Assembly: GCA_030649025.1 (NCBI GenBank)
Contig: JAUSGO010000028.1
Location: 1,074-65,073, forward strand
Direction of reading: 5' to 3'
Length of the DNA stretch: 64,000 bases
Source: a bacterium
Lineage (GTDB): Bacteria > Patescibacteriota > Minisyncoccia > JAUYLV01
Program-made: the position numbers and the translations under genes
The notes under the pieces: generated by a model
Told to the model about the DNA's origin: nothing
Seen by the model: only the letters and a program-made list of their open reading frames with translations
Databases searched by the model: none
Shown: piece after piece, positions 8,158 to 56,318 of the stretch
Layout: each line of letters starts with the position of its first letter
Numbering within the stretch: the stretch's first letter is position 1

Positions 8158-9714
8158 ATGGAAAAGGTTCAGATAAAAATCAATAAATCCGCTTCCGTGT
8201 CCGGGAAGGATGCGGCACTCCCGAGCCTTCCTGCTAGCGCGAAGAACGTCGTTCCCAAAAAGGAAGTTTTGGAACTGATACCCGTGTCCTTGGTGAAAGA
8301 ATTCGGTGCGTTTGTTTTTGACGCGTCAGAAAAAGAAATAAAGATCGCCGCTCAAGATCCAAGCCAACCGGTCCTGCAAAAATTCGTGTTGGAACGCTTT
8401 GGAGAAAAAGCGAAATGGTTTGGCGCATCCGAAGAGGATGTCCAATTCATCATCAAGCATTATCCACGGGACTTCAAAGACGAAATTTCCCGGCTTACCG
8501 AAAATCCCAATGTTAACGGCAACATCGTGGAAATTGTCGACCGCATCATTGCTTACGCCATTGCCGAAAAAGCAAGCGATGTGCACATTGAGTCGATGCG
8601 CGGCCAGACCCTGGTGCGCTTCCGCGTGGACGGCTTGCTTCACAAAGTGCTTACCATGCCTCAAGACGTGCATCAAGCCATGATCGCGCGCTGTAAAATT
8701 CTGGCAAATTTGAAAATAGACGAATACCGCCGCCCGCAAGACGGCAGAATCGAGCTGGAAACTCCTCCCAATACTTCGCTACGCATTTCCATCGTACCTA
8801 CGCTTCATGGAGAAAAAATAGCCATGCGTATTCTGGACGACTCGAACAAAAATCTCTCGATGGAGAATCTCGGTTTCTCAAAAAGCCACCAAGAAATACT
8901 TTTACGCAACATTGAAAAGCCATTTGGCATGATGGTGACTTCAGGCCCCACGGGGTCGGGAAAAACCACAACGCTTTACGGCCTGTTGAGCCTTCTGCCG
9001 AAAGACGGCATAAACATCTCCACGCTCGAGGACCCCATTGAGTACGCTCTCGACGGCGTCAACCAGATCCAAATAAATCCCCGGGTGGACCTTACCTTCG
9101 CTTCCGGACTCAAGGCACTTCTGCGCCAAGACCCGGATATCATTATGGTAGGAGAGATCCGCGATTCGGAAACCGCGGTGATGGCGGCAAATGCCGCGCT
9201 CACGGGACATATGGTGCTTACCACGCTTCATACCAACGATGCGCCATCGGCCGTAACAAGGCTTCTAGAAATGAAGGTGGAGGATTTCGTGGTAAGTTCC
9301 ATCGTCAACCTGGTCATCGCGCAACGGCTCGTGCGGAAAATTTGCGAATCCTGCGCCGAAGAACGGAAACTCGACGAAATTCTTTTTAAAAAAATTACGG
9401 AGCGCGGAGATGTCAAAGAGGCCCTGGAAAGCATGGGGCAGAGCATGGACCAAATTCGCGAGCGTACATTCCGCGTCGGCAAGGGCTGCGATGCGTGCCT
9501 CGGAACGGGATATGTTGGACGCGCCGGAATTTTTGAATTACTGGAGCTTAATAAAACCATACACGACCTTATTCTGGAACACGCGCCATCGGAGCGCATC
9601 AAAGAGGTAGCAATAAAAGCAGGATTCAAAGACATGATTGCCGACGGCCTGGAGAAAGTTTTTTCTGGCGTGACCACGTTCGATGAAGTTCTGCGCACAA
9701 CCCGCAACGTGTAA
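8158..9714 (+). CDS. pilB: type IV pilus assembly ATPase PilB (GspE/PilB family)
   Basis: Walker A VTSGPTGSGKTTTLY, Asp box, Walker B/His box, tetracysteine motif CESC...CDAC; N-terminal GspE_N-like region. Confidence 0.9.
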   Translation: MEKVQIKINKSASVSGKDAALPSLPASAKNVVPKKEVLELIPVSLVKEFGAFVFDASEKEIKIAAQDPSQPVLQKFVLERFGEKAKWFGASEEDVQFIIKHYPRDFKDEISRLTENPNVNGNIVEIVDRIIAYAIAEKASDVHIESMRGQTLVRFRVDGLLHKVLTMPQDVHQAMIARCKILANLKIDEYRRPQDGRIELETPPNTSLRISIVPTLHGEKIAMRILDDSNKNLSMENLGFSKSHQEILLRNIEKPFGMMVTSGPTGSGKTTTLYGLLSLLPKDGINISTLEDPIEYALDGVNQIQINPRVDLTFASGLKALLRQDPDIIMVGEIRDSETAVMAANAALTGHMVLTTLHTNDAPSAVTRLLEMKVEDFVVSSIVNLVIAQRLVRKICESCAEERKLDEILFKKITERGDVKEALESMGQSMDQIRERTFRVGKGCDACLGTGYVGRAGIFELLELNKTIHDLILEHAPSERIKEVAIKAGFKDMIADGLEKVFSGVTTFDEVLRTTRNV

Positions 9715-9733
9715 TATTATTTTTTGAAACCAC

Positions 9734-10945
9734 ATGTCGTCTTTCGCATATAAAATCGTCACAAAGGAAAACAAGGTCCTTGAAGGAGAAGTGGATGCGC
9801 CGTCAAAAATAAAAGCCGAAGAAAAGTTCAGGCAGGAGGGTTCAACGGTGCTTTTCGTATCTCCGAAAAAAACATCCTTGTTCGCGAAAGAACTGTCCAT
9901 GCCCTCATTCGGTTTTCCCATCACCGAGCGCATATTTTTTTTCAGGAACCTTGCCACCATGCTCGGCGCAGGCCTTTCCTTGGCAGATGCCATGCGCGTA
10001 TTGGAAGAGCAGGCCAGAAGCAGCGGAGTCAAAAAAGCCATCGTAACGATCATCCATGACGTTGAGAACGGGAGACGGTTTTCGGACGCCATGCGGAAAT
10101 TCCCGAATTTTTTCTCGGATTTTCTTATTGAGGCGATACACGTGGGAGAACTCACGGGGCAGCTTGCCGATACGCTCGATCGCATATCCACGGACCTCGA
10201 GCACGACCACGATTTGCGTCGAAAGGTTCAGGGGGCCATGGCGTATCCATTGGTGGTGCTCACGGTTATGACGGGCGTAGTAATCACGCTTACGGGTTTT
10301 GTTCTGCCGAAGATTGCGGACCTTTTCAAGGAGCTCAATGCGCCGCTCCCAATGCCGACACGAATTCTTCTTGGGGGAAGCGGATTCATCCGCTCCAGTC
10401 CCTTTGCGGTTATAGGCGTCTTTGCGGCGCTGGCCGTAGGACTGTTCTTGCTCTGGAAAAATAAAAAGGGAAGATATTTCATCCATTATGCGTTTTTAAA
10501 AATCCCGGTCTTCGGCGACATGCTAAGGGAATTTAATTTGGCAAGATTTTTCAGGGCTCTTGAATCGCTTTTTGCAAGCGGCATTTCGCTCGTACGTTCC
10601 GTAGAAATCGCCAAAAAAATCCTTAAAAATGACGTATACCGGCAGGCTCTCGATGGCGCGCATCCCATTCTTATACACGGCGCGCCGCTTTCGGACGCGT
10701 TGAAGCTTCATCCGTTTCTTTTTCCTACGCAAACACGGCGCATTATAGAAGTCGGGGAACGCACGGGAAAGCTGGAGGAAATTTTCAGGCGTGTCACCTC
10801 GTATTACGAACGCGCCCTGCATCATAAAACCCAAATGCTCGCCTCGCTCATTGAACCGGTTCTTATTGTATTTATCGGCGTAGTCGTTGGGGGACTCGCG
10901 CTGTCTGTTTTTCTTCCCATTTACCAGGCAACGAGCGTGTTTTAA
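9734..10945 (+). CDS. pilC: type IV pilus inner-membrane platform protein PilC (GspF family)
   Basis: Two GspF-like repeats with conserved ...EVGE(R)TG(K)LEE... motifs and 3 TM blocks; immediately downstream of pilB. Confidence 0.85.
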   Translation: MSSFAYKIVTKENKVLEGEVDAPSKIKAEEKFRQEGSTVLFVSPKKTSLFAKELSMPSFGFPITERIFFFRNLATMLGAGLSLADAMRVLEEQARSSGVKKAIVTIIHDVENGRRFSDAMRKFPNFFSDFLIEAIHVGELTGQLADTLDRISTDLEHDHDLRRKVQGAMAYPLVVLTVMTGVVITLTGFVLPKIADLFKELNAPLPMPTRILLGGSGFIRSSPFAVIGVFAALAVGLFLLWKNKKGRYFIHYAFLKIPVFGDMLREFNLARFFRALESLFASGISLVRSVEIAKKILKNDVYRQALDGAHPILIHGAPLSDALKLHPFLFPTQTRRIIEVGERTGKLEEIFRRVTSYYERALHHKTQMLASLIEPVLIVFIGVVVGGLALSVFLPIYQATSVF

Positions 10946-10955
10946 GAATTTTGGC

Positions 10956-11417
10956 ATGGCCAGAACACATTTAAAAATTTTTACTCCGCAACGGGGATTC
11001 TCCCTTATTGAAACCCTCGTTGTTGTGGGCATTTTAAGCATCATCGCGGTTTTTGCGCTGGGATCGCTTCGCGGCGTGCGCTCGCGCGCGGCACTAAGCG
11101 ACGGACAAATACTCATTGTCCGGGCCCTGGAGGAAGCGCGCAACCGCGCCGTAACGGGCGCGGGAACATCGGACCATGGCGTCCACATCGAGCCGGGAAA
11201 GATAGAAACGTTCGAGGGCTCCGTATACATTCCCGGTAGCGGCGTAGAGTCATTTCTGCCTCCGGGTGTCTCGACAGACCAGGCAAATGCCATTGTGATA
11301 TTCAAAAGACTGGTTGGGCAATCAAGCGCAAACCCCACCATAATGCTTTCTAATGTTTCGGGCGCAACATCAACAGTTGCGGTAACATTGGACGGCGCGA
11401 TCATCCCTAGCTTATAG
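10956..11417 (+). CDS. prepilin-type N-terminal cleavage/methylation domain protein (pilin/pseudopilin)
   Basis: Class III signal: ...QRGFSLIETLVVVGILSIIAVFA; start chosen at ATG 10956 (ORF extends to 10887 overlapping pilC). Confidence 0.7.
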   Translation: MARTHLKIFTPQRGFSLIETLVVVGILSIIAVFALGSLRGVRSRAALSDGQILIVRALEEARNRAVTGAGTSDHGVHIEPGKIETFEGSVYIPGSGVESFLPPGVSTDQANAIVIFKRLVGQSSANPTIMLSNVSGATSTVAVTLDGAIIPSL

Positions 11418-11458
11418 CTGATAGCTTTTAGGGTTTAGACTCATCACGAAATCAATTC

Positions 11459-11983
11459 ATGAAATTTTCCAAACCTATTAGCTATAAGCTAAAAGCTAAA
11501 AGCTCCAAAGGCTTTGCGCTTGTGGAAGTTATTATCGGCATGGGTATTGCCGCATTTCTTCTCACCACATTCTCGTCAATTGCCCTGCAGAGTAAAAAGG
11601 TAAGCCGGGCAAATATGCGCAACTTTAAGGCAGCGCTGTATCTTCGCGAAGCTATAGAAGTAGCCAAAGACCTGGAACAGACGAACTGGGCAAGCTTTGC
11701 AAACCCGCTCTGCGTCTCGACGCCATATTGCCATCCGCAGGCGGCCGGAAGCACGTGGACCCTTGCCGGAGCAGAAGAGCTGCTCGACGATGGCATGTTT
11801 GCGCGGACTCTTTCCGTCTCGTCCGTATATCGAGATCCTGTAACAAACGCTATCGATCTTGCCGATCCGCCAACGGGCGCGCTTGACCCGAATACAAAAA
11901 AAGTGACGGCAGCGGTGAGGTGGGATACCGGGTATGTCGTGCGCACCGGAACGCTTGAGGCATATATATATAACATGCCATGA
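11459..11983 (+). CDS. prepilin-type pseudopilin
   Basis: KGFALVEVIIGMGIAAFLL class III signal peptide motif. Confidence 0.7.
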   Translation: MKFSKPISYKLKAKSSKGFALVEVIIGMGIAAFLLTTFSSIALQSKKVSRANMRNFKAALYLREAIEVAKDLEQTNWASFANPLCVSTPYCHPQAAGSTWTLAGAEELLDDGMFARTLSVSSVYRDPVTNAIDLADPPTGALDPNTKKVTAAVRWDTGYVVRTGTLEAYIYNMP

Positions 11984-12468
11984 CCCTACCCCTTAACACC
12001 AAACAGCAAAAAAATCCGCGCAAGCTTGGATTCCAGTCAGGGGTAACCCTGCTTGAAGTTATTCTTGTCCTGACTATCGGTGTGGCTGTTGCTACGATGG
12101 TGACGCTTGTTACGTCCGCGGGCCTTAAAAATATCCGATCTGCAAAACGCCTTGAGCGGCTTCATGCAAACGCCGTTTTCACCACAAATGCCCTCACCTA
12201 CTGGATAAAACAGGGGGATTTGCTCACCGTAACTTCCACGACCGCTTTGAGAATAATCCTTCCGGATTCTTCCATAAAATATATTGAGAAATCCAATAAT
12301 CGTGTTACACTGGACGGCAACGCCATAACCACCGATGATGCCCAAGTGACCAATCTTACCTTTGCGCGCTTTGGACGCTCGGTCCGCTTCGGACTTTCGC
12401 TCAAAGCCCGGAATGCCCCAGAGACGCTTTCCGTAACCTCTACCGTAGCTCAAAGAAATTCTTTTTAG
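11980..12468 (+). CDS. prepilin-type pseudopilin
   Basis: GVTLLEVILVLTIGVAVATMV motif after short basic leader; 4-nt overlap with upstream pilin gene. Confidence 0.65.
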   Translation: MTLPLNTKQQKNPRKLGFQSGVTLLEVILVLTIGVAVATMVTLVTSAGLKNIRSAKRLERLHANAVFTTNALTYWIKQGDLLTVTSTTALRIILPDSSIKYIEKSNNRVTLDGNAITTDDAQVTNLTFARFGRSVRFGLSLKARNAPETLSVTSTVAQRNSF

Positions 12469-12483
12469 CGCTTCATTATATAT

Positions 12484-13572
12484 ATGAGCAAGAAACTCAA
12501 ATTTTCAAACAGGAACCCCGAACGCGGAGTCATCACGCTCATGGCGGTGCTTGGCGTGGGCTTGTTTGCTCTGGGTGCCGCCCTCACCATGGCAACGGGG
12601 GTCCTTTCGGAACTTGCGACAAACCAGGACACTGTTGCGGGAGACCAGGTTTTTTATACAGGCGAATCAAATGCGGGAGAGGGAGCCTATCAATACCTCT
12701 CCACCTCGTCGTATGCAAGCGTCGCGCCGACTCTGCTCAACGACACCTCTACCGGCTCCGTTGTAATCGTTCCCTTGGCATGGCCGTATGTTCGGGCTAG
12801 GGGTCACGCCGGAAACGGCACAACGCGCCGCATCGTGTCGCGCATTATCACCGTTTTTCCCGAGGGACAGGCTTTTGACTACGCAGTATATTCTAATGAA
12901 GAAATGAATTTCGGCGGCAATGCTACCGTGAACGGCGATGTGTATGCAACCGACGAAATCGATTTTACGGGTGCGAGCGCCGAAGTGAACGGCAACGCGT
13001 TCTCACCGGGGGATGTTGAAACGGATAATGTAAACGGTTTCTCGGTTACCGGCGTTGATGTTATTGAGCCTCCACGTATTTTTATTGAGCCTTACCGAGA
13101 CATGGCCATAGCCGCAGGAACCCATTTCACAAGCACCCCTCTGGCAAGAAGCTTTCTTAATAACAATATAACGCACAATATTGCCGTAGTGGTTGAAGAT
13201 ATCCCAGAACTTAAACTCCAAAATTCTACCAGCTCCACGGGAAGCCTTGTTACGTTGCACGACCTGGAACTTACGGGCGGAACCTACACCGCCGCAGGTG
13301 GACGGCCCGCTATTATTGTCTATGGAAACCTAAAAATCGCTGGCGGCACCACCATAAACGGCATTGTGTATGTGGAGGGTTCAACTACGTTCGGTTCGGG
13401 AACAAATACCATAAATGGCTCGCTCATTTCTGTCGGGGGCGCGAGCGTGGACGTAACGGGCAATGCCGTAATAAACTTTGATCCACAGTACGTTGCGGAT
13501 TGGGACTTGCTGCCGGGACTTGATACCTCTACCACCTCAACGCCGGAAGTGATTTCATGGGGAGAAGAATAA
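12484..13572 (+). CDS. pilus-associated large minor-pilin-like / tip protein (hypothetical), membrane-anchored, G/T/N-rich beta-rich repeats
   Basis: N-terminal hydrophobic anchor after basic leader (ERGVITLMAVLGVGLFALGAAL); last gene of pilin operon; no enzymatic motifs. Confidence 0.45.
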   Translation: MSKKLKFSNRNPERGVITLMAVLGVGLFALGAALTMATGVLSELATNQDTVAGDQVFYTGESNAGEGAYQYLSTSSYASVAPTLLNDTSTGSVVIVPLAWPYVRARGHAGNGTTRRIVSRIITVFPEGQAFDYAVYSNEEMNFGGNATVNGDVYATDEIDFTGASAEVNGNAFSPGDVETDNVNGFSVTGVDVIEPPRIFIEPYRDMAIAAGTHFTSTPLARSFLNNNITHNIAVVVEDIPELKLQNSTSSTGSLVTLHDLELTGGTYTAAGGRPAIIVYGNLKIAGGTTINGIVYVEGSTTFGSGTNTINGSLISVGGASVDVTGNAVINFDPQYVADWDLLPGLDTSTTSTPEVISWGEE

Positions 13573-32540: not shown

Positions 32541-34067
32541 ATGCATCCATCGCGTATATTCTTTTATAGCTGTTCTGCGTTCGGCGTGGGCATATGCGTC
32601 TCGGCTATCTTTCGCATTCCGGAGAGCATGACCCTGGGCATGCTGGGCATTGCGACGGCATCACTGGCCGTGGCCGTTCTGACAAAAGTGCGTATTAAAT
32701 ATCTTGTGCCGGCGCTTGGCATTATAGCTTTTGCTCTCGGTATTATTCGGTTAGGAGACGTCGAGCAGCGGTGGGAACATGAGCGCAATGAATTTCTTCT
32801 TGCCGCACAAAACCTGTCCCGAGTATTCCCGAGGGAGGCGCCGTCAGGCATAACTGCAACCGTCGCGTCGCGCGAGAGGCTCGAGAATTCTACTCGATAC
32901 GAACTCGAACGCATTTCTCTGGAAGATCGCTCCCGGACTCGTTGGCTTCTTACGTATACAGGATATGAAATATTCGACCCCGGAGACCGCATCCTTCTGC
33001 AACGGCCGCACTTCGATACCTCAACGACGAGCGAAGCTTTTTTGAAGCGCGACGGCATTGCCGGCGCCGTGAGGTTCCCTGAAAAAATCGTTCCGCTCGG
33101 AAGTTCCTGTCCTACGTTTTTGGCGAATGCCTCATGCGCCCGCTATAGAGCTTCCGAGCAACTCTCCCATCTGAAAGAATCTTTTGAAAAAAATCTCCGT
33201 CTTGCGCTTCCCGTACCGCATGCCGCGCTCGCGGCCGGACTTTTGCTGGGCACGCGCAGCGCTCTGTCGCAGGAAATGAAGGACGATTTCAGGCGCACGG
33301 GAATGAGCCACATTGTCGCAGTTTCCGGCTACAACATCACTATTCTTATCCTTGCCATTGCCACCCTGATGGGATTTTTTATGTTGCCCAGATCCTTAAC
33401 ATTCTGGGCCGTCACACTGTTCATTATACTTTTTACGCTTCTCACCGGAGCCGGAGCGTCGGTGGTGCGCGCAGCCCTCATGGGATTCTTGCTTATTCTT
33501 GCGCAAAAAGAATCACGCATGTATTCGGCAAGGATTGCCCTTTCTTCCGCCGGGGCTCTCATGCTTTTTCAAAACCCGATGCTTTTGCGATACGATCTGG
33601 GCTTCGTGCTTTCGTTCCTGGCAACCGCAGGACTTTTGGTGCTTTATCCGCTTCTTGAAGAGCGAGCGCGCGAAAATAAGAAACTCTCCGGCATTAAGGA
33701 TGTCGCACTGCAATCCGTCTCCGCACAGTTATTTGTCTTACCTGTCATCATCATTACATTCGGTTCTATTTCTTTCGTATTTCTCATCTCTAACGTTGCC
33801 GTTCTCCCATTCATTCCCCCCACGATGTTTTTCAGCTTCCTTGCCGGTATCGCGGGGTTTTTCGGCGAGCATATCGGAAACATCGTTGCGTTTCCCGCAT
33901 ACATTCTGCTTGATTACGAGATTATCATCGTTGCCACGTTTTCAAAAATTCCTCACGCATCTCTTGCTCTGGCGTCCGCTTCTTTGCGGTATGCCGCAGG
34001 ACTTGCCTCCACCATAGGAGCTGCCTTGCTTGTATGGAAACTGAAAAAACTTCGTGAAACTTTTTAA
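32541..34067 (+). CDS. comEC: ComEC/Rec2 DNA-uptake channel (DUF4131 + competence domain), without C-terminal MBL domain
   Basis: Multi-TM; competence motif RRTGMSHIVAVSGYNITILI; about 10 predicted TM helices. Confidence 0.75.
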   Translation: MHPSRIFFYSCSAFGVGICVSAIFRIPESMTLGMLGIATASLAVAVLTKVRIKYLVPALGIIAFALGIIRLGDVEQRWEHERNEFLLAAQNLSRVFPREAPSGITATVASRERLENSTRYELERISLEDRSRTRWLLTYTGYEIFDPGDRILLQRPHFDTSTTSEAFLKRDGIAGAVRFPEKIVPLGSSCPTFLANASCARYRASEQLSHLKESFEKNLRLALPVPHAALAAGLLLGTRSALSQEMKDDFRRTGMSHIVAVSGYNITILILAIATLMGFFMLPRSLTFWAVTLFIILFTLLTGAGASVVRAALMGFLLILAQKESRMYSARIALSSAGALMLFQNPMLLRYDLGFVLSFLATAGLLVLYPLLEERARENKKLSGIKDVALQSVSAQLFVLPVIIITFGSISFVFLISNVAVLPFIPPTMFFSFLAGIAGFFGEHIGNIVAFPAYILLDYEIIIVATFSKIPHASLALASASLRYAAGLASTIGAALLVWKLKKLRETF

Positions 34068-35001
34068 TGTTCGTGCAATATTTATGTATCGCCTCTTCAG
34101 AAAACATCGCTTTCTTCTTGTATTCATCCTTTTTCTTGGGGTTGTGCTTTTGTGGAAGACGGACGCTCTCGTCGGTTCTCCAGGCCTTCGTGTCCACTTC
34201 TTTGATGTTGGCCAGGGAGACGCGGAATTTTTTGAAACCCCGGGGGGCAAGCAGGTGCTTATCGACGGCGGGCCGCGGCAAGACGTGATACGGCGTCTTG
34301 CCCAGACCATGCCGTTCTGGGACCATTCAATAGATCTTGTCATCCTCACCCATCCTCAGCTTGACCATCTTTCCGGCCTTGTTCCCGTTCTGGAGCGTTA
34401 CCACGTGGGAAGCATCATGCTCAATGCCGCTTCGTACAAGCTTGATGCATATGCGGCGCTTTTGAACGTTGTTGGGCAAAAAAACATTCCCGTTGTTTTG
34501 GCACGCGCGGGTGAAAAAATAACGTTCGATAGCGGCATCACCGCCAAAATTCTTTCTCCGAAAGAAATCGTTGCGGAGGAGTTGTTCAAGGAAATAAACG
34601 AATCATCCATCATCGTGCGCCTTGATTACGGAAAGACGTCTTTTTTATTCACCGGGGACGCTGGATTTCCCACGGAAGAAGATCTTGTTTCCCGAGATGC
34701 CTTTCTTGATGTGGATGTGCTGAAAGTGGGACACCATGGCTCAAAATACGCCTCAGGAGAGACGTTCTTGCGGGCGGTATCGCCACGCGTTGCCGTCATT
34801 GAAGTTGGCGCAAAAAATACCTACGGCCACCCAACTCCGGAAACACTCTCGCGCCTTGCCGCAATCGGCGCTACAATATTTCGAACCGATAAAGACGCCA
34901 CCGTAACGCTTGAAACGGACGGAAAAACGGTATCACGGCTCTTTGCGAAAGACTACGGCATCTTCCGTTCCGTAAAGTCGCAAACGCTTTTTGAGGAATA
35001 G
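34054..35001 (+). CDS. membrane-anchored metallo-beta-lactamase-fold hydrolase (ComEC C-terminal-type nuclease domain) encoded as a separate ORF
   Basis: N-terminal TM; FFDVGQGDAEF, LILTHPQLDHLSGL (HxHxDH), VGHHGSK motifs; overlaps comEC stop by 14 nt. Confidence 0.7.
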   Translation: MKLFNVRAIFMYRLFRKHRFLLVFILFLGVVLLWKTDALVGSPGLRVHFFDVGQGDAEFFETPGGKQVLIDGGPRQDVIRRLAQTMPFWDHSIDLVILTHPQLDHLSGLVPVLERYHVGSIMLNAASYKLDAYAALLNVVGQKNIPVVLARAGEKITFDSGITAKILSPKEIVAEELFKEINESSIIVRLDYGKTSFLFTGDAGFPTEEDLVSRDAFLDVDVLKVGHHGSKYASGETFLRAVSPRVAVIEVGAKNTYGHPTPETLSRLAAIGATIFRTDKDATVTLETDGKTVSRLFAKDYGIFRSVKSQTLFEE

Positions 35002-37820: not shown

Positions 37821-37891
37821 GCGGGCGTAGTATAGTGGTAGTACGTGACCTTCCCAAGGTCAAAGTGTGGGTTCGATTCCCATCGCCCGCT
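37821..37891 (+). tRNA. tRNA-Gly(CCC), CCA not encoded
   Basis: GCGGGCG-TA-GTAT-AGTGGTA-GTAC-G-TGACC-TTCCCAA-GGTCA-AAGT-GTGGG-TTCGATT-CCCAT-CGCCCGC-T. Confidence 0.85.
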
Positions 37892-37912
37892 CATGCGAGG
37901 TTAGTGGAGTGG

Positions 37913-38032
37913 GCTGAATGCTCCAGTGGAGCATTCAGCGGGAGACTGCGGTGTTTCGGAAAAATAAAAGTCTCCCAGGAAGTACGATTGCTTCCCAAGC
38001 AATAAGCACGAGTCCGATTCTCGTATCCCGCT
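37913..38032 (+). other. chimeric tRNA-Gly(CCC)-like paralog: structured element copy D replaces the 5' third; anticodon arm, T-arm and acceptor 3' strand retained with compensatory substitutions
   Basis: GGCTGAATGCTCC-AGTG-GAGCATTCAGC / GGGAGAC[23-nt loop with GTTTCGGAAAAATAA]GTCTCCC / AGGAA / GTAC-G-ATTGC-TTCCCAA-GCAAT-AAGC-ACGAG-TCCGATT-CTCGT-ATCCCGC-T; stems differ from true tRNA-Gly but remain paired. Confidence 0.5.
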
Positions 38033-38045
38033 CACGTTGAGAAGA

Positions 38046-38068
38046 CCGCACTGTTGTGCGGTTTTCTT
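38046..38068 (+). terminator. rho-independent terminator
   Basis: ccgcac-tgtt-gtgcgg followed by ttttctt. Confidence 0.55.
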
Positions 38069-38143
38069 GTTGAGGAGCGCGGAGAAGTAAATCGTTCCCG
38101 ATGGATATTTGCATAATGACGAAAATTATGGTATGCTTTAAAC

Positions 38144-40291
38144 ATGGAAATAAACGATCAGGCAAGCGTATACTTCGCCCGCACTAACTTTCGCGGGGAA
38201 GACAGGATTTTCGGCATTAAGACCAAAGACCGCAGACAGCACATGTACGTGGTCGGCAAGACCGGCTGCGGCAAGTCGGTCATGCTTAAAAACATCGCCG
38301 TGCAGGATATTCAGAACGGCTCGGGTATTGCCGTGGTAGACCCGCATGGGGAACTCGTAGAAGAAATCCTTGCCTCCATACCCCCGCATCGTATCAACGA
38401 TGTGATTTATTTTAACCCAGCCGATGCCGAATTCCCCATTGGCTTTAACGTGCTGGAGGTTCCGGACCCGAAATACAAACATGTGGTCGCTTCGGATCTC
38501 ATGGGGATCTTCACGAAAATTTGGGCAAACGTCTGGTCGGCGCGCATGGAGTACATCATGCAAAACTGCATAATGGCCTTACTCGATACGCCCGGAACCA
38601 CCCTGCTTGGCATTCCGCGGCTTTTGGTTGACCGGGAATACCGCACGAAGATCATTGCAAACATCAAGGATCCTGTAGTGAGGGCATTCTGGACGCAGGA
38701 GTATGAGAATTATACCGACCGTTTGCGCTCGGAAGCCATCGTGCCCATCCAGAACAAAGTAGGCCAGTTCCTGAACACCTCCATGGTGCGCAATATCATG
38801 GGCCAGCCCAAAAGCGGTTTTAATGTGCAGGATGTTATGAATTCTGGAAAGATTCTCTTGGTGAACGTCTCAAAGGGACGGATTGGCGAAGATAATTCGG
38901 CATTGCTTGGCGCCATGATGATCACAAAATTACAGCTTGGCGCCATGGAAAGAGTCCGCGTTGCCGAGAAGGATCGCAAGGATTTTTATCTCTATGTTGA
39001 CGAGTTCCAGAACTTCGCGACGGATTCATTCGCTTCGGTGCTTTCGGAAGCCAGAAAATACCGACTCAATCTTGTCATTGCGCATCAATACATCGGACAG
39101 CTGGTTACCGAGCAGTCCACCAAGGTGCGGGATGCCGTATTCGGCAACGCCGGGACCATCATTACATTCCGGGTAGGAGCGGTTGATGCAGAATTTCTGG
39201 AAACAGAGTTTACTCCGGAATTCCTGCCGGAAGACCTGGTGAATCTCCCCAATTATCATATTTACACGAAACTCATGGTTGACGGCGTCACTTCTAGGCC
39301 ATTCTCCGCAACAACGCTCCCCCCCATACCGGTGGAAGAATCTGATCAAACGGTAGAAAAGATCATTAAAATATCGCGCGAGCGTTATTCTCTGCCCCGC
39401 AAAGAGGTTGAGGAGCGCATTATGCGGTGGAGCGGCATGGATTTTTCGGAAACCGAAAGCACTCCGGAAGATGAGTTTGTTTTCGGACCGAAAACTGCCG
39501 CTTCCGGACAAAGGGGAGCGTCTGACGCTCGGCAATCTGGATCTTTTTTAAACAGAAAAAACGATAAGGCTCCGAGCGTTCCTTTGCAGCTTTTCAACGC
39601 CGTATGTGCGCGATGTAAAAAACAGACCGAAGTGAATTTTCAGCCCGATGGCAGACGGCCGGTGTATTGCAAGCTATGCCTGCCCATAATCCGCTCGGAG
39701 GAGGTGAAAAAACTAAAATCCGAAACATTCGCAAGTTCCGTAGCAGAAAAACCGGCATCTCAACGAAATGTTGTCGGGGCATATGGCACGCCCCGGCCCA
39801 CCCCGCCAAATCTCCAGCAAAGCGAGCCGGCTCCCCTGCCCGCAAGGCGTCGCCCCGGCCCTGGCGCGGATTTTCCAACCGTTCGGCCAACCTCTTTTAA
39901 GGTTGCGCCCGCCGTCCCAACTAACATCGTGGATCTTTCAATCCCAAATAAAATTCAACAAGAGAAGTCAGGAATTCTCAAAGAAGTCGGGACCGGGCCG
40001 AAGGTCGGGATAAAAGCTATTTCCCTCAAGGATGCCCTTCAAATGGACGGACTGACATTTTCCGGTAAAAGACTGAAGCGAAAAGAAGTGGATCTTACGG
40101 CTTTGCGCGAAGCGCTGGGTGCATCGTTAGAATCGCGCGAGCTTCCCGATGCGCCAACTTCACCAGAACCTTACCTCGCCCCGCAGCAAGGCAGACGGGG
40201 CGAGCCGAAACATGAAACGGGCTCCGTGCCACAACACAAAGGCGCCCCACTCCGTCCGGGCCAGATTGTGACGCTTAGAGCAGAGGAGTAG
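38144..40291 (+). CDS. VirD4/TraG/TraD-like (DUF87/AAA-like) P-loop ATPase with C-terminal CxxC-x17-CxxC zinc ribbon and Pro-rich disordered tail
   Basis: Walker A VVGKTGCGKSV, VVDPHGEL, Walker B FYLYVDEFQNF, LVIAHQYIGQL (TraD/TrwB-like AHQ motif); zinc ribbon CARCKKQ...CKLC; low-complexity tail. Confidence 0.55.
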   Translation: MEINDQASVYFARTNFRGEDRIFGIKTKDRRQHMYVVGKTGCGKSVMLKNIAVQDIQNGSGIAVVDPHGELVEEILASIPPHRINDVIYFNPADAEFPIGFNVLEVPDPKYKHVVASDLMGIFTKIWANVWSARMEYIMQNCIMALLDTPGTTLLGIPRLLVDREYRTKIIANIKDPVVRAFWTQEYENYTDRLRSEAIVPIQNKVGQFLNTSMVRNIMGQPKSGFNVQDVMNSGKILLVNVSKGRIGEDNSALLGAMMITKLQLGAMERVRVAEKDRKDFYLYVDEFQNFATDSFASVLSEARKYRLNLVIAHQYIGQLVTEQSTKVRDAVFGNAGTIITFRVGAVDAEFLETEFTPEFLPEDLVNLPNYHIYTKLMVDGVTSRPFSATTLPPIPVEESDQTVEKIIKISRERYSLPRKEVEERIMRWSGMDFSETESTPEDEFVFGPKTAASGQRGASDARQSGSFLNRKNDKAPSVPLQLFNAVCARCKKQTEVNFQPDGRRPVYCKLCLPIIRSEEVKKLKSETFASSVAEKPASQRNVVGAYGTPRPTPPNLQQSEPAPLPARRRPGPGADFPTVRPTSFKVAPAVPTNIVDLSIPNKIQQEKSGILKEVGTGPKVGIKAISLKDALQMDGLTFSGKRLKRKEVDLTALREALGASLESRELPDAPTSPEPYLAPQQGRRGEPKHETGSVPQHKGAPLRPGQIVTLRAEE

Positions 40292-40416
40292 CACGTACGC
40301 CCCATAGCTAGACATCCGAAGACATTCGGATGTTTTGTTTTTTTGACTTTTTCTAGATAGCCGGCTATGATACGCCGTTGGTTCATTGAAATTATTCTTG
40401 ATAGAAGGGGGTAGTA

Positions 40417-50116: not shown

Positions 50117-51082
50117 ATGATAATTCTTCCGTTGTTTGACAATTTTGCAGGCAAACAGGGGCAAAAGAAGGGAGACGAGATGATGCGTGCCCTATTGATA
50201 GAACTTTCGAGAAATAAATGGATAGCCCGCCGGGTCACGAAAAATGGATGGGCTTGCCGTATGGCGCGCAGATTCGTTGCGGGCGAGACCCTCGAGGATG
50301 CTATTGGGACGGCAAGACGTCTCAATTCCGAAGGACTTGCCGTGAGCCTCGACTACCTCGGGGAGCACGCGCAAGGTCGCGAGGCCGCCCATTGCGCTGG
50401 ACTTACCTATCTCCGGATTCTTGAGCGCATCGCAAATGAGGGGCTTGACGCGAACATTTCCGTAAAACTCACCCAGCTTGGACTCGAGGTGAACGACGAT
50501 CTGTGCGAAGAGCTTATCACCTCGCTCTGTGTCCATCTGCGTGATTCTTCCCAAATAGTGCGCGTCGACATGGAGGGTTCCGCTTACACCCAGCGAACGA
50601 TTAATGTCGTAAAAAATGTTCTACAGAGAATGCCATCAATCGGTATCGTCATCCAGGCGTATCTGTACCGCAGCGAGCACGACATTGAAGAACTTTTAAA
50701 GCGCGGCTGCCGGATACGGCTTTGTAAGGGCGCGTACCGGGAGAAGCCGAATATCGCGTTTCCCAAAAAACGAGATGTGGATGCAAATTTTTTGAAACTT
50801 ATGAAAACGCTTCTTGCAAGCGGCGTCTATCATGGCATCGCCACGCACGATGAAAACATGATCGAGGCGACAAAAGACTTTGTTGAGACACGCGGAATCA
50901 AAAAAGATGCATTCGAGTTCCAGATGCTCTACGGTATTCGAGGAGATATTCAAAAAAAACTAGTGCACGACGGCTATCGCGTACGCGCATACGTTCCCTA
51001 CGGAACGGAGTGGTTTCCGTACTTCATGCGGCGGCTGGCCGAACGCCCCGCGAATCTTTTCTTTCTTCTCCGCAATCTCTAA
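50117..51082 (+). CDS. proline dehydrogenase (PutA-type PRODH domain only)
   Basis: PRODH beta8-alpha8 barrel motifs: VSLDYLGEH, ISVKLTQLG, VRVDMEGSAYTQ, IVIQAYLYRSEHDI, RIRLCKGAY; probable true start about 50180. Confidence 0.6.
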   Translation: MIILPLFDNFAGKQGQKKGDEMMRALLIELSRNKWIARRVTKNGWACRMARRFVAGETLEDAIGTARRLNSEGLAVSLDYLGEHAQGREAAHCAGLTYLRILERIANEGLDANISVKLTQLGLEVNDDLCEELITSLCVHLRDSSQIVRVDMEGSAYTQRTINVVKNVLQRMPSIGIVIQAYLYRSEHDIEELLKRGCRIRLCKGAYREKPNIAFPKKRDVDANFLKLMKTLLASGVYHGIATHDENMIEATKDFVETRGIKKDAFEFQMLYGIRGDIQKKLVHDGYRVRAYVPYGTEWFPYFMRRLAERPANLFFLLRNL

Positions 51083-51308
51083 ATAACTGACGGGCCATAA
51101 ACCCTCATCTCGGCGTACCCATGCGCCGATTTTTATTTATTCCGCAAAAAACCGATACTATGGGCATCGGTGCCCGCCCCACCCTTGACGAACAATCCCC
51201 AACGGGGCTTGAACATCCCTGGGCTTTACTTGTTATGCAGGATTATGCTAGAGTGCAGATGTTATTTTCCAAGTGAATACTCAGAAAAAATCGTAAAGGA
51301 GGGTCTCC

Positions 51309-53387
51309 ATGAAAAACGAAATCCCGAACGACATTAACGGACTTTTGGAACATGACCGAAGCGAACAGGGAAAGAAGGTCTTTCGCGGAACTTGCCGCGA
51401 ATACCTGGATATTGTGCGGGCTAATCCTGGGATCGTGCGACTTGCCCACGCTACCGTCTACGATCACGTTATCATGGCGGCCGGCGTAACCACCGTCGAC
51501 GTTGAAAAGGACCCGCGCCTGCGTCGGCTTTACAGCGCGGAAACCTTGCGGGAACTTAATTTTTTCAAAGATAAATTTTTCGGAATTCGCGATACGGTGG
51601 ATGCTATCGGACGCTACTTCCAGGGAGCCAAAAATCGTGGCGAGGAGTCTCGACAGATCCTCTACTTCGTGGGGCCCGTCGGATCTGGAAAAACTTCTTT
51701 GGTTGAAGAATTAAAGAAGGGTATGGAGAGTGCGCCGCCCGTCTATGCCGTCAAGGATTGTCCGCAGCAAGACGCCCCGCTCCTTCTTATCCCCAAGCAC
51801 CTGAGAAAAAAGATGGAGGGGCTGCTCGGCGTGAGAATTGAGGGAGATATTTGTCCCGTCTGCCGCTATCGCCTCACCGAAACCGACAAGATCGAACGGC
51901 TAACCAAGGATTGTTTCGCGAACGAGAAGTGTCTCATCGACAACGACAAGAAAAAAGGAGTCGACTGGCCGGCGTTCTGGAAAATGTATCATCAAGAGTT
52001 CGATTATCGTGACGAGGCGGGGAATGTGCTTTGGGAAAAGTATCCCGTGGAAATGGTTTCCTTCTCCATCCGTGCTCGGCGCGGTATCGCTTCGGTCCCG
52101 CCGACCGACCCGAATAATCAGGATACCAGCGTCATTTTCGGCGATATCGATATTTCCAAGATCGACCGATATCCGGAAGATCATCCGCTGGTATTGCGTC
52201 TGAACGGCGCCTGTAACCGCGGAAACCGTGGCATTGTGGAATTCATCGAGATCTTTAAGAACCCGCCGGAGTTTTTACATCCGGTCATTACCGCTACGCA
52301 GGAGAAGGCCATTCCTTCGCCGGGCAAAACCGCAATGATCTATTTTGACGGCGTTATCATCGCCCACTCCAACGAACCCGACTATAACAAGTTCATTTCC
52401 GACAATTCCAACGTCGCCATCCAAAATCGCGTCTACCCCATCCGCGTTCCTTATGCGATCGAAATTTCCGAGGAGACCGCGATATACGAGAAGTATCTGA
52501 AAAGCACCGATTTCAAAGGAAGCGTCGCGCCACACACTCTGGAGGTCGCGGCGATGTTTTCGGTGCTGACGCGTTTGAAGCCGTCGCAGAAGTGCGATCT
52601 CTTGACAAAGTTGTATCTGTATGACGGCCGCGCAGTCATCGAGAAGGGACAGGCCAAGCGCATTGATATTTCGGAATTGAAAGAGGAAGCAACGAACGAG
52701 GGCATGTCTGGCATTTCCACGCGCACCATCTTCAAAGCCATCGATTATGCCATCTCCATGAGCGATCATGATTGCATCAATCCGCTTACTATCCGCGAGG
52801 CTATCATGGAAATGCTCAAAAAAGAGCACCTTGCCGATGATATGCGTATGCGATACGTGGAAGAAATTCTGCGCGGGATCGTACACAAGGAATATCTGAA
52901 GATCCTGGAAAAAGAAATCACTCGCGCCTACGTGCATGCATACGAGGATCGTGCCGAAACATTCTTCCAGAATTACTGGGATAACGTAGCGGCCTGGTGC
53001 CTTCACAAAAAGGTCAAGGACCGCGCTACCAAGGAAGAGCGCGATCCGGATATCGCCAGCATGTCGGCAGTCGAGGGGCAGCTTGGCCTTTCCGGAGGAG
53101 CTACCGAAGGATTCCGGCACGATTTCATTGCCTACGCGCAGGAAGTACTTCGCGGAGGAGGAAAGCTTTCATACAAGAGCTATGAGCCGCTTAAGGAAGC
53201 CATTGAGGGCGTGCTTACCGCATCTCTCCGCAAGGAAGCCCGTATTATTACCGGGGCAACCGCGCGCGACGATGAACAGGGTAAGCGGTACGACGCCATG
53301 ATCGAACGTATGCGAACAATCGGATACCATCCGCACTGCTCGGAAGTGATTCTCCGATATGCGTACAATAACGTCTGGAAAGACTAA
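51309..53387 (+). CDS. prkA: PrkA-family serine protein kinase (YeaG-like, AAA+ N-domain)
   Basis: ILYFVGPVGSGKTSLVEELKKGME...YAVKDCP...ICPVCRYRL typical of PrkA/YeaG. Confidence 0.8.
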   Translation: MKNEIPNDINGLLEHDRSEQGKKVFRGTCREYLDIVRANPGIVRLAHATVYDHVIMAAGVTTVDVEKDPRLRRLYSAETLRELNFFKDKFFGIRDTVDAIGRYFQGAKNRGEESRQILYFVGPVGSGKTSLVEELKKGMESAPPVYAVKDCPQQDAPLLLIPKHLRKKMEGLLGVRIEGDICPVCRYRLTETDKIERLTKDCFANEKCLIDNDKKKGVDWPAFWKMYHQEFDYRDEAGNVLWEKYPVEMVSFSIRARRGIASVPPTDPNNQDTSVIFGDIDISKIDRYPEDHPLVLRLNGACNRGNRGIVEFIEIFKNPPEFLHPVITATQEKAIPSPGKTAMIYFDGVIIAHSNEPDYNKFISDNSNVAIQNRVYPIRVPYAIEISEETAIYEKYLKSTDFKGSVAPHTLEVAAMFSVLTRLKPSQKCDLLTKLYLYDGRAVIEKGQAKRIDISELKEEATNEGMSGISTRTIFKAIDYAISMSDHDCINPLTIREAIMEMLKKEHLADDMRMRYVEEILRGIVHKEYLKILEKEITRAYVHAYEDRAETFFQNYWDNVAAWCLHKKVKDRATKEERDPDIASMSAVEGQLGLSGGATEGFRHDFIAYAQEVLRGGGKLSYKSYEPLKEAIEGVLTASLRKEARIITGATARDDEQGKRYDAMIERMRTIGYHPHCSEVILRYAYNNVWKD

Positions 53388-53592
53388 TCTTTCCTGAAGT
53401 TCGGAGCCAAGACCGCTTGGCTCTTTTTTATTTCCAAGCGATCGGGCAGCGCATAATAATCTCCGTTTTGACGTCTAGAGAGCGCAGGAGCCCGAGAGCT
53501 TAATTTCCTTTATTTTTCCGTCCGCCGTTGACGGCGGGCAGGAAATCCCCTACCCTTAATAGGATATTGTTCATTGCCAATTTAAGACAAGT

Positions 53593-54816
53593 TTGACAGG
53601 AGGCCATATGGCTATATTCCGAGATTCTTCCAGAGAAAGCGACCGGGGCGCAGAAGACCGCGCCAGGCACCGAGAGCTCGTACGAGAATCGGTTCAGGAA
53701 AACATCGGGGATATCATCGGGGAAGAAGATATCATCGGCGTATCCGGAAATAAGAAAATCAGAGTTCCCATCCGTGGTATCAAGGAGTACCGTTTCGTTT
53801 ACGGAGAAAACGGTGGGGGCGTTGGCGAGGGCAAAGAAGGCATGGAGCCCGGTGACACCTTCTCTAAGCAAGGAGGGAAGGGCCGTATGCCGGGACCCGG
53901 CGGAGACGATCCCGGCGAGGAAATATATGAGACCGAGATCTTTCTCGACGAGCTTCTTGATATTGCCTTCGAGGACCTCATGTTGCCGGAAGAAGCGAAA
54001 AAGAGGCTTCGGGAGATCGAAGTAGAACAGCATGCCAAACGCTATGGCTACCGAAAGGCCGGACCCCCGCCGCGCCGATCAAAAAAGCGCACAGCGAGAG
54101 AACGGCTGAAGCGCAAGAAGGCAACCGAACGCGCAACGCTGGAACGGGCAGAAGACCAAGCCTTGTCTCCCGCCACACCCCTGGACGGCCAGGAAGAACA
54201 TTTTCCCTTCCACAATCAGGACCTTCGGTATCACTACGTAAAGAAAACGAAGCGCCGTGAATCGAACGCCGTGGTGTTTTGCGTCATGGATGTTTCCGGT
54301 TCCATGGATATTACCAAAAAATATCTTGCGCGCATGTTCTACTTCCTGCTCTATCGATTCCTAAAAACGAAATACGCGCGAGTAGAAGTGGTGTTCATCG
54401 TACACCACACCGTGGCCCGGGAAGCCACCGAACAGGAATTCTTCCACCACGTGGAATCCGGCGGCACCCATATTTCCAGCGGCGCCATAAAGGCGCTTGA
54501 GATCGTCGATGAGCGCTTTGACCCCACGGTATGGAATATTCACTACTTCCACTGCTCCGATGGCGAAAATTTCGAGCATGATAACCCGGCAGCGATCAAA
54601 GCGTTTCGCCAGCTGACCGATATTGCCAATCTCGTTGGCTATGGAGAGATCAAGCCGGAAACGGGATTTGACTGGGGAAGCATCACGCCAATCCTTGAAA
54701 AAGAAATTCGCGCGGATAACTTTGCCGTAGTAAAAATCCGAGATCGGAAAGATCTCTGGAAGGCATTCAAAGAACTTCTCTCCAAGGAGCAGCTGGATCG
54801 GAGGAAAACATCATGA
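53593..54816 (+). CDS. YeaH/DUF444 (UPF0229) family protein with vWA-like domain
   Basis: N-terminal R..L...V.ENIGDIIGEEDIIG...KIRVPIRGIKEYRFVYGENGGGVGEG; vWA-like MDVSGSM; conserved partner of PrkA. Confidence 0.75.
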   Translation: MTGGHMAIFRDSSRESDRGAEDRARHRELVRESVQENIGDIIGEEDIIGVSGNKKIRVPIRGIKEYRFVYGENGGGVGEGKEGMEPGDTFSKQGGKGRMPGPGGDDPGEEIYETEIFLDELLDIAFEDLMLPEEAKKRLREIEVEQHAKRYGYRKAGPPPRRSKKRTARERLKRKKATERATLERAEDQALSPATPLDGQEEHFPFHNQDLRYHYVKKTKRRESNAVVFCVMDVSGSMDITKKYLARMFYFLLYRFLKTKYARVEVVFIVHHTVAREATEQEFFHHVESGGTHISSGAIKALEIVDERFDPTVWNIHYFHCSDGENFEHDNPAAIKAFRQLTDIANLVGYGEIKPETGFDWGSITPILEKEIRADNFAVVKIRDRKDLWKAFKELLSKEQLDRRKTS

Positions 54817-56318
54817 CCGACTGGACCATAAAAGACTTGGAACGTTATGAAGAGGCCATTTCCAAGATCGCCAAAGAAGAGGGGCTGAACTGCTTTGAAC
54901 AGGAGTACGAGATATGCGACCATGCGGAGATGATCGGCTATATGGCCTACAACGGTATGCCCGCCCACTACCCGCACTGGTCTTTTGGGAAATCATTCGA
55001 GCGCAGTGAGACTCTGTACCGCTACGGCGTGCAGGGCCTGCCCTACGAGATGGTGATCAACGCCGACCCATCTCTTGCCTACCTCATGCGCTCCAATTCT
55101 CTTGCATTGCACATTGTGACCATAGCGCATGCGGGATGTGGTCATAATGATTTCTTCAAGAATAATCGATGCTTCAGGCACACCCGACCCGAGTATACGA
55201 TGCAGCGCTTCAAGACACATGCGGACCGGGTGCGCGAATACACCAAAGACCCAAGCATCGGACGCCGACGCGTAGAGCAGGTGCTGACCGCGGCGCACGC
55301 CTTATCGCTGCATCGGAGGCGAAACATTGAAGCGCCGCGCCTGAATCAAGCCGAACAGCGCAAACGACTATTTGAATCTGCTCAGCCGCGAAAAGACGAG
55401 TGGACCGACATCCACTCTCGGCCCGACTATAAGACCCCGGATCTATCACGTGTCCCGCTTGAGCCGGAGGAGGACATCCTGCTTTTTATCAGGGACTTTA
55501 ATCCGTCCCTTGAATCTTGGGAAAAAGACTTGCTTACTATCGTTGCCGAGGAATCCGATTACTTCTGGCCGCAGATAGAAACCAAGATCATGAACGAAGG
55601 GTGGGCAACCTACTGGCACTATAAGATTCTGAACAGCCTGAAACTTCCTCCAGAATTGCACCTGGAATTCCTTAAACTGCACAATCAGGTTATCGCGCCG
55701 CACATCGGCTCAATCAATCCCTATCGTCTGGGATTTGAGCTTTTCAAGGATATTTACCGGCGGTGGGAGAATCCCACGCCGGAAGAGAAGGAGAAATATG
55801 GTCTGTCCGGCGGCGAGGGAAAATCGAAAATATTTTCCGTGCGCGCAGCCGAGCGCGATATTTCCTTTCTGCATCAGTATCTGACGGAGGAGTTCCTACG
55901 CCGCTTCTTTTTCGTCGAGTACGCCGAAGATGAAGAAGAAATTATGATCACCGACACGGTGGATGAGCATAACTGGCAAGATTTTCGCGGCCAGATCGTG
56001 CAAAACACTGGATCAAACTCCATTCCCGATATTCGGGTATACGACAGTAACTTCAAAAACGCCCAAACGCTACTTGCCCTGCACTGCTTTGACGGGCGCG
56101 AGCTCCACCCCGAATACGCCGCCCATACGCTGCGTCACTTTCAGACGCTTTGGCGCAGGCGGGTACATCTTTTAACCTGGAATCTCCGGGAAAAAGCATG
56201 CTGGCTCTACACCACGGATCCGTCCGATAAGATAACCCAGCATAAACATTGCGAATCTCCCGATTGCCCATTGCGAAAATGGCTGAAAGAGCGTGGGCAG
56301 GAGCACTTGATATTGTAG
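54813..56318 (+). CDS. SpoVR family protein (YcgB-like)
   Basis: AHYPHWSFGKSFERSETLYRYG...YEMVINADP...HAGCGHNDFFKNN; 4-nt overlap with upstream gene. Confidence 0.8.
   Translation: MTDWTIKDLERYEEAISKIAKEEGLNCFEQEYEICDHAEMIGYMAYNGMPAHYPHWSFGKSFERSETLYRYGVQGLPYEMVINADPSLAYLMRSNSLALHIVTIAHAGCGHNDFFKNNRCFRHTRPEYTMQRFKTHADRVREYTKDPSIGRRRVEQVLTAAHALSLHRRRNIEAPRLNQAEQRKRLFESAQPRKDEWTDIHSRPDYKTPDLSRVPLEPEEDILLFIRDFNPSLESWEKDLLTIVAEESDYFWPQIETKIMNEGWATYWHYKILNSLKLPPELHLEFLKLHNQVIAPHIGSINPYRLGFELFKDIYRRWENPTPEEKEKYGLSGGEGKSKIFSVRAAERDISFLHQYLTEEFLRRFFFVEYAEDEEEIMITDTVDEHNWQDFRGQIVQNTGSNSIPDIRVYDSNFKNAQTLLALHCFDGRELHPEYAAHTLRHFQTLWRRRVHLLTWNLREKACWLYTTDPSDKITQHKHCESPDCPLRKWLKERGQEHLIL

Follow-up and report, generated by a model that had tools for sequence, protein, structure and literature searches.

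Within a stretch of 64,000 nucleotides (nt) from a member of the Patescibacteria (positions 1,074 to 65,073 of contig JAUSGO010000028.1, assembly GCA_030649025.1; hereafter the window), the open reading frame (ORF) at 38144-40291 of the forward strand encodes a soluble ATPase with the predicted fold of the coupling proteins TrwB and VirD4. This product and its orthologues are here called T. The favoured explanation, with a probability of roughly 55%, is that T is the substrate-recruiting, zinc-finger-bearing motor subunit of a chromosomal, membrane-tethered translocation ATPase of the type IV coupling protein (T4CP)/VirB4 type, found across the Patescibacteria. At the level of the family, T-type ATPases are tied by operons and by gene fusions to a paralogous ATPase (A) and to a membrane-anchored protein, DUF8128. 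For the window itself, T is a native gene of the kind usual in its phylum and gives no evidence of a mobile element at the adjacent tRNA-Gly gene.

The layout of T was read from the translation, from Pfam matches and from an AlphaFold2 model based on 58 homologues, with the predicted local distance difference test (pLDDT) as confidence measure; residues are counted in amino acids (aa).

38144..40291, + strand: gene T, 715 aa, ATG start; soluble TrwB/VirD4-fold ATPase with C-terminal zinc finger and disordered tail
38156..39442, + strand: ATPase core, aa 5-433; RecA-like nucleotide-binding domain with helical insertion, pLDDT 80-96
38255..38278, + strand: Walker A motif GKTGCGKS, aa 38-45, read in translation
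38468..38842, + strand: all-alpha insertion, aa ~109-233; predicted helices, pLDDT ~82-96, counterpart of the TrwB all-alpha domain
38987..39004, + strand: Walker B motif YLYVDE, aa 282-287; D286 and E287 invariant in the 58 homologues
39080..39088, + strand: AHQ motif, aa 313-315; H314 and Q315 invariant in the 58 homologues
39443..39583, + strand: variable disordered linker, aa 434-480; pLDDT <50, alignment occupancy 0.26-0.68
39584..39730, + strand: zinc-finger module, aa 481-529, pLDDT ~90; CxxC-x17-CxxC at aa 488-512, then a helix
39731..40288, + strand: Pro/Ala-rich tail, aa 530-715; 186 aa, predicted to be disordered except for one short helix

A preliminary description of this DNA had named Walker A and B, DPHGE, AHQ and CxxC...CxxC motifs, and all of them are present in the translation, DPHGE at aa 66-70. 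Its Pro/Ala-rich tail was borne out in composition (13% Pro and 10% Ala versus 4.6% and 6.2% in the core) and in predicted disorder, but the length is 186 aa and not the 150 aa given there. Conservation, taken as the share of the most common residue per alignment column and averaged over 25-aa windows, reaches 0.76-0.95 in the core across the 58 homologues, whereas the linker varies, as does most of the tail. In the zinc finger, C488, C491, P501, R505 and P506 are invariant and C509 and C512 nearly so. The tail of T holds three conserved short motifs, ISLKDAL (aa 626-632), KEVDLTALREAL (aa 648-659) and the C-terminal PGQIVTL (aa 705-711), and the predicted short helix (aa 651-663) overlaps the second of these. 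Among the homologues, LGIEF, I/VSLxxAL, KEVDLxxLRExL and a C-terminal PGExIKF/L recur as tail motifs.

No hydrophobic segment was found in T, where 19-aa hydropathy peaks at 1.13, and a transmembrane-like segment was found in none of 76 orthologues, so that the protein is best described as a soluble ATPase with a coupling-protein fold. Moreover, the Walker A motif already lies at aa 38 and therefore leaves no room for a preceding transmembrane domain.

The assignment to the TrwB/VirD4 coupling-type family, made earlier from motifs alone, was supported by Pfam, where TrwB_AAD_bind matched aa 27-344 (E value 7.9e-14, 51.8 bits versus a cut-off of 20.5), followed by zf_Tbcl_2 (5.7e-12), DUF87 (1.4e-6) and TraG-D_C (3.3e-6). 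In NCBIfam, T matched TIGR04272, the CxxC-x17-CxxC family, above its cut-off (7.5e-12). FtsK_SpoIIIE reached 12.6 bits in Pfam versus a cut-off of 24, confined to 30 residues around the P-loop, and VirB4-type AAA_10 reached 15.9 bits, under its cut-off. T also remained below threshold on the curated T4CP models of NCBIfam, scoring at most 46 bits on models with cut-offs of 250-650 bits (TIGR03743, 46.4 versus 366 bits; conju_CD1115, 36.8 versus 250 bits). When the predicted model was compared with the PDB by Foldseek, the best 34 matches were all TrwB-deltaN70 chains, with E values down to 2e-13 and TM-scores of 0.59-0.66 normalised to TrwB (408-450 columns aligned, target ~420 residues). DotL, HerA (from rank 35) and Cag-beta followed, and FtsK and VirB4 were absent from the best 50 matches. 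Profile alignment by hhalign with F-plasmid TraD and TraC covered the P-loop region alone (E 1e-4 and 4e-3), and these single-sequence templates are too weak to place T.

A HerA/FtsK housekeeping translocase was considered as the family of T and rejected, as T4CPs rank first in Pfam, NCBIfam and the fold search. The ATPase superfamily is common to all of them, as the DUF87 match indicates. However, T is predicted to lack the HAS-barrel of HerA, with just ~30 residues (two beta-strands) before the P-loop, and HerA partner genes (NurA, Sir2, DUF4297) were not found beside T in the window or in related loci. The gamma domain of FtsK is likewise absent. The preliminary description had asked whether a HerA/FtsK family with conserved synteny unrelated to tRNA would emerge; relatives do show conserved synteny that has no link to tRNA, yet T matches T4CPs best and not HerA or FtsK.

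T and TrwB, VirD4 and TraD have the RecA-like domain, the all-alpha domain and both Walker motifs in common, and these proteins provide the best fold and Pfam matches. The identity to TrwB is merely 14-16%, and several differences are evident. Most T4CPs have an N-terminal transmembrane domain that anchors the hexamer, which is missing from T, and neither relaxase nor mating-pair-formation genes were found near T in the window or in 83 related loci. Furthermore, T behaves as a slowly evolving, vertically inherited chromosomal core gene with a zinc-finger tail, and its family, unlike T4CPs, pairs with a paralogue and a separate VirB4-like membrane protein. Judged by its predicted model, T is thus a TrwB/VirD4-type coupling-protein-fold ATPase that departs from T4CPs in two defining respects, having no transmembrane domain and no linkage to a type IV secretion system (T4SS) or relaxase. 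C-terminal extensions of T4CPs recruit partners, TraD binding TraM and DotL binding adaptors, and the C-terminal extension of T could likewise recruit partners. From VirB4, TrwK and TraC, T differs in that its ATPase domain is nearer to TrwB and that VirB3, VirB6 and VirB8 genes are not adjacent; fused relatives of T, described below, have a VirB4-like layout (transmembrane segment, DUF8128, ATPase; 800-1100 aa).

The zinc-finger type of T is identical to that of small CxxC-x17-CxxC proteins of Methanosarcina (TIGR04272/zf_Tbcl_2), for two of which, from M. mazei, zinc binding was demonstrated experimentally (PMC12704099). There the finger is free-standing and small, whereas here it forms a tail module of a 715-aa ATPase and also occurs in ~570-aa cysteine-rich proteins.

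T is widely distributed. A word-indexed protein search returned at least 8000 matches, of which the best 120 were all Patescibacteria or metagenome-assembled genome proteins with identical Pfam architecture and 52-73% identity; over the ATPase and zinc finger, the more than 8000 relatives are 55-73% identical to T. In an exhaustive search, 23,728 representatives of 50%-identity clusters matched at E<=1e-3 and 6,654 at E<=1e-30. Among GTDB species representatives, at least 591 T loci were confirmed, spanning Sung-, Staskawicz-, Nomura-, Jorgensen-, Wolfe-, Giovannoni-, Kaiser-, Morani-, Lipton- and Niyogibacteria as well as unnamed Paceibacteria. T carries the orthologue marks of this family, that is, 55-73% identity, the GIFTKIWANVWS signature and the CxxC-x17-CxxC finger, and it is a native, vertically inherited core gene of Patescibacteria rather than the leftover of a mobile element.

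That Patescibacteria carry orphan T4CP homologues has already been published. A census counted 5,713 VirD4-like T4CP homologues in 2,918 of 3,035 Patescibacteria genomes (96%), about two per genome, only 148 of them near virB4, and found VirB4 in 2,417 of the 3,035 genomes (80%); its authors remarked on a possible exaptation of the T4CP homologue (Quinonero-Coronel et al. 2025, PMC12102498). The T orthologues and these homologues are almost certainly one gene set. In the portion of the census available, the homologues appear as counts alone, with no mention of a soluble architecture, zinc finger or tail motifs, pairing of T and A, DUF8128, cysteine-rich arrays or a dnaK operon. The literature searched likewise did not describe how this subfamily is built, the pairing of T with A, DUF8128 as a partner and in fusions, the zinc finger that T shares with the cysteine-rich arrays or the embedding in the dnaK operon.

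Two loci bear titles outside the phylum (Bdellovibrionales or Gammaproteobacteria). One, on a 717-kb contig (L083), carries a gene with sigma-70 region 4 and HARE-HTH (c6), DUF8128 and a zinc-finger ATPase in Patescibacteria-type order; the other, of 2.6 kb (L081), contains DUF8128 followed by an ATPase and nothing more. Both labels are probably wrong and stem from mislabelled bins.

To define the neighbourhood of T in relatives, ORFs were called in 84 related loci and clustered by BLASTP; 74 of the loci bear T, and 38 of them, with at least 8 kb on either side of T, are referred to as well-flanked. The paralogous ATPase A (~450-520 aa, ~44% identical to T, zinc finger absent) lies within 10 kb of T in 31 of the 38 well-flanked loci. 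The cysteine-rich family c1 occurs in 24 and DUF8128 in 12 of them, and at least one of A, c1 and DUF8128 in 35. Two unrelated contexts were found. In arrangement I, SecD, SecF, c6, DUF8128, sometimes a small transmembrane protein, A and T follow each other, with EF-P convergent; in one such locus (L004), gaps of 2-33 nt point to an operon. In arrangement II, the Nomurabacteria/Paceibacteria type, ribosomal-protein and rpoA genes are followed by GrpE, an oppositely oriented PaaX-like gene, DnaK, T, A and DnaJ (e.g., in L066, L054, L020, L053, L057 and L042, with gaps of 5-60 nt), often interleaved with one to several c1 copies. A tight dnaK-T-A-dnaJ operon was present in 17 of the 38 well-flanked loci; in L066 its gaps measure 61, 5 and 15 nt. 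The pairing of T and A is kept in both contexts and in both gene orders.

DUF8128 has an N-terminal hydrophobic transmembrane helix in 21 of 24 proteins and no P-loop. An AlphaFold2 model of one member (L004:6710-7978, protein P0271) reached a mean pLDDT of 85, and TrwK/VirB4 of R388 accounted for each of its best 14 PDB matches in Foldseek (E values from 4e-6 to 2e-3, probability 0.99-1.0). This model provides a lead that the cytoplasmic domain of DUF8128 may resemble VirB4, presumably its N-terminal domain. A hidden Markov model (HMM) built from stand-alone DUF8128 detected an N-terminal DUF8128 extension of ~400 aa in 63 of the best 150 cluster representatives (E 1e-23 to 1e-99), and precomputed Pfam matches agree with these DUF8128-ATPase fusions. 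Three of the best 150 representatives contain two ATPase domains in one chain. At L090:7581-12985, two tandem DUF8128-ATPase fusion genes with overlapping stop and start codons lie next to SecDF; further fused relatives are found at L091:732-6136 and in proteins P0148, P0172, P0191, P0209 and P0220. The sigma-region-4 gene precedes fused forms too. Both kinds of fusion point to a single complex in which the ATPase, its paralogue and DUF8128 act together, and the position of DUF8128 N-terminal to a cytoplasmic ATPase suggests that its globular domain is cytoplasmic. The literature search found no functional study of DUF8128, PF26449 or zf_Tbcl_2.

The family c1 comprises proteins of ~570 aa with ~33 cysteines, zinc ribbons at both ends and no transmembrane segment, as expected of cytoplasmic proteins. 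In 45 loci, 118 copies were counted, in tandem arrays of up to five and often beside T and A (e.g., L003:12157-20783, L069:6101-7813 and L058). No match to c1 was found in Pfam, NCBIfam or PADLOC. Its C-terminal finger, which also aligns weakly with LIM domains, is by sequence comparison homologous to the zinc finger of T (hhalign E 7.9e-5, probability 61%).

From these ties, a working model can be drawn. By analogy to TrwB and VirD4, T would form a ring, probably together with A, and DUF8128 may hold this ring at the membrane. The ring would then spend ATP to thread a polymer, which could be DNA or an unfolded protein. Cargo or adaptors might be recruited by the zinc finger and tail of T, as by the C-terminal extensions of TraD or DotL, and the c1 proteins, which share the finger, are candidates for either role. 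If the partners of T have been kept in the genome studied here, they would lie outside the 64-kb window, since tblastn and HMM searches of the window for A, c1, DUF8128 and c6 returned T alone.

Several points weigh against this explanation. T stands alone not only in the window but also in its two closest relatives: in the first (P0002, 72% identity) it follows ClpB and an acyl-CoA dehydrogenase gene, with ClpB two genes upstream, and in the second (P0005, 63% identity) it lies near YebC and RuvC. T thus appears to have parted from its usual partners in this sub-lineage, the sole remnant of arrangement I in the window being the proximity of EF-P and ComEC, and a dependence on A or DUF8128 is hypothetical here. 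The likeness of DUF8128 to VirB4 comes from one predicted model with a TM-score of ~0.38 on the query, in which the matched VirB4 domain is not indicated, and a link at the level of sequence was not found, as a PDB-sequence profile search was empty and hhalign against F-plasmid TraC gave E 0.19. Ring formation, site at the membrane and cargo are carried over from TrwB, VirD4 and DotL, and the family is known from sequences and predicted structures alone. Finally, a t4cp homologue, which may or may not be an orthologue of T, was non-essential in the one transposon-sequencing study, of a Saccharibacterium, in which T4SS genes were essential, as the census paper reports (PMC12102498).

A more far-reaching version is possible but doubtful. 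In this version, T, A and DUF8128 would constitute a third, undescribed branch of the VirB4/VirD4 superfamily, an autonomous, membrane-tethered two-ATPase machine that serves as a near-universal housekeeping system of Patescibacteria independently of T4SSs, with the zinc-finger tail as a new cargo-recognition code. Such a machine might move proteins, for example the zinc-finger-tagged cysteine-rich arrays, or nucleic acid between epibiont and host. Patescibacteria, which account for much of the diversity of bacteria, have very small genomes and live on other cells. Nearly all of them keep about two coupling-protein-like ATPases that are unattached to a secretion system, and the census acknowledges the role of these as an open point (PMC12102498). 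The annotation of T as a "T4SS DNA-binding domain-containing protein" can now be replaced by a defined module of two soluble paralogous ATPases, a putatively VirB4-like anchor (DUF8128), a shared zinc finger and arrays of candidate cargo. If the autonomous machine were real, it would bear on macromolecule exchange with hosts and on the divergence of VirB4 and VirD4.

As a tentative alternative, T might be a genuine coupling protein of the Patescibacteria T4SS, whose VirB4/VirB6/VirB2 cluster lies elsewhere, and might feed it protein effectors rather than relaxase-bound DNA. This overlaps with the favoured translocation ATPase and adds a specific dependence on the T4SS. It is consistent with the T4CP fold of T and with a Southlakia T4SS cluster that has no recognisable coupling protein (PMC10633639); T4CP genes often lie away from virB4 (PMC12102498), and a VirB4-like DUF8128 would suit docking on a VirB4 platform. 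On the other hand, the census figures given above show T4CP homologues to be more widespread than VirB4 (96% versus 80%) and almost never adjacent to it, which favours at least partial independence from the T4SS. The contrast between the non-essential homologue and the essential T4SS genes in the Saccharibacterium speaks against this alternative too. In addition, a further VirB4-like ATPase or a relaxase was found in none of the 83 related loci.

Other readings of T draw on its surroundings in the window, where the following features were found.

8158-13572: type IV pilus cluster (PilB, PilC, pseudopilins), from Pfam
32541-34067 and 34054-35001: split ComEC, two overlapping ORFs with the membrane/competence part and the metallo-beta-lactamase part, 3 kb upstream of T
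37821-37892: tRNA-Gly(CCC), 251 nt upstream of T
37981..38024, + strand: truncated tRNA-Gly(CCC)-like fragment with anticodon arm and T arm, D arm missing; Rfam tRNA positions 9-63
38045..38068, + strand: hairpin ACCGCAC-TGTT-GTGCGGT with U-tract, read in sequence; Rfam aligns it with the terminator hairpin of a leader model
40310..40345, + strand: intrinsic-terminator-like hairpin of 11 pairs with T-run, 19 nt after the T stop codon

As an alternative, the preliminary description had proposed a stand-alone DNA translocase acting with the pilus/ComEC system. T would then be a DNA-uptake or pumping motor for natural transformation, and both the split ComEC and the type IV pilus cluster are indeed present in the window. 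ComEC also lies within ~5 kb of T in 10 of the 74 T-bearing loci (6 of the 38 well-flanked), and T weakly matched CedD and CedB, two ATPases of archaeal DNA import, in the region around Walker A only. Nevertheless, this role is unlikely: ComEC is never co-transcribed with T, an opposite-strand EF-P gene or RecG always intervenes, the linkage is confined to one synteny type, and the partners of T that persist across lineages are A, DUF8128 and c1 instead. The split of ComEC itself recurs in 8-11 related loci and is thus a conserved gene structure and not a frameshift error.

It has also been considered that T and A, located in the cytoplasm or at the membrane, unfold proteins, control their quality or export them together with DnaK/DnaJ/GrpE or SecDF, and do not move nucleic acid. 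The tight dnaK-T-A-dnaJ operon described above would fit, as would SecDF, which adjoins in three different arrangements, and the ClpB gene two genes upstream of T in the closest relative. However, each linkage is limited to one lineage-specific gene order and thus reflects few independent events, operons of Patescibacteria mix unrelated genes, and a chaperone-related domain is absent from T, so that this role is very unlikely.

Hardly credible is the remaining suggestion that T is the remnant of a conjugative or mobilisable element integrated at tRNA-Gly, or part of a mobile anti-phage defence system: T does adjoin tRNA-Gly and a truncated tRNA-like copy, and its best PADLOC match is mad8 of the methylation-associated defence system (1.1e-15), but tRNA-Gly lies within 10 kb of T in none of 60 related loci, the composition of T is native, an integrase, a relaxase or a repeat pair was not found, and 55-73% identity across lineages with near-universal presence is the opposite of the patchy pattern of mobile and defence genes.

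The preliminary description had raised such an integration remnant as one option, and it was rejected: besides the tRNA-Gly count, the fragment at 37981-38024 shares 8 exact bases with the tRNA, orthologues of T occur across lineages, its neighbours are housekeeping genes, and GC and third-codon-position GC of T (0.521 and 0.575) deviate by at most 0.4 standard deviations from other genes of the window. The fragment begins ~90 nt past tRNA-Gly, and the shared bases are those of the 3' end of the tRNA; it scored 21.6 bits versus a gathering score of 29 in Rfam (E 0.055) and was not called by ARAGORN. It looks like a decayed tandem copy and not like an att site. The defence reading was set aside because of the universal, not patchy, distribution and because PADLOC gave only P-loop-level matches, to mad8 and HerA, for T and A (mad8: A 9e-10) and none for DUF8128 or c1. 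The mad8 match of T covers most of the ATPase core, and the matches of T and A suggest that soluble TrwB-like ATPases occur in defence systems too.

The search for FtsK-like P-loops by regular expression found none in the related loci, which says nothing about whole genomes.

At the locus itself, T sits between tRNA-Gly and an aminotransferase gene. The hairpin at 38045-38068, although not in the output of a consensus terminator scan, is likely the terminator of the DivIC/tRNA-Gly unit and would insulate T from upstream transcription. The terminator-like hairpin directly after T makes the gene look monocistronic. By eye, a candidate promoter (TTGCAT, 17 nt, TATGCT) was noted at 38109-38143, ending 6 nt before the ATG of T, which a consensus scan did not list. 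A Shine-Dalgarno sequence was not visible by eye before T, so that the mRNA may be leaderless or nearly so.

The window is an ordinary housekeeping chromosome of the Patescibacteria type. A Pfam scan of 30 other ORFs of the window, including most ORFs above 300 aa, found no relaxase, VirB4 or other T4SS gene, in agreement with the earlier remark that conjugation genes are missing near T. The scan identified sortase, surface proteins, MgsA, Mfd, RecG, DivIC, an aminotransferase, EF-P, HIT and YdjM, as well as ParA/ParB, RelA/SpoT and PrkA-DUF444-SpoVR. At 50117-56318, a proline dehydrogenase gene is followed by an operon of PrkA, DUF444 (YeaH) and SpoVR. To our knowledge, this metabolic and stress gene set is richer than would be expected for a Patescibacteria genome; in the locus of the nearest relative, P0002, the acyl-CoA dehydrogenase gene was also noted.

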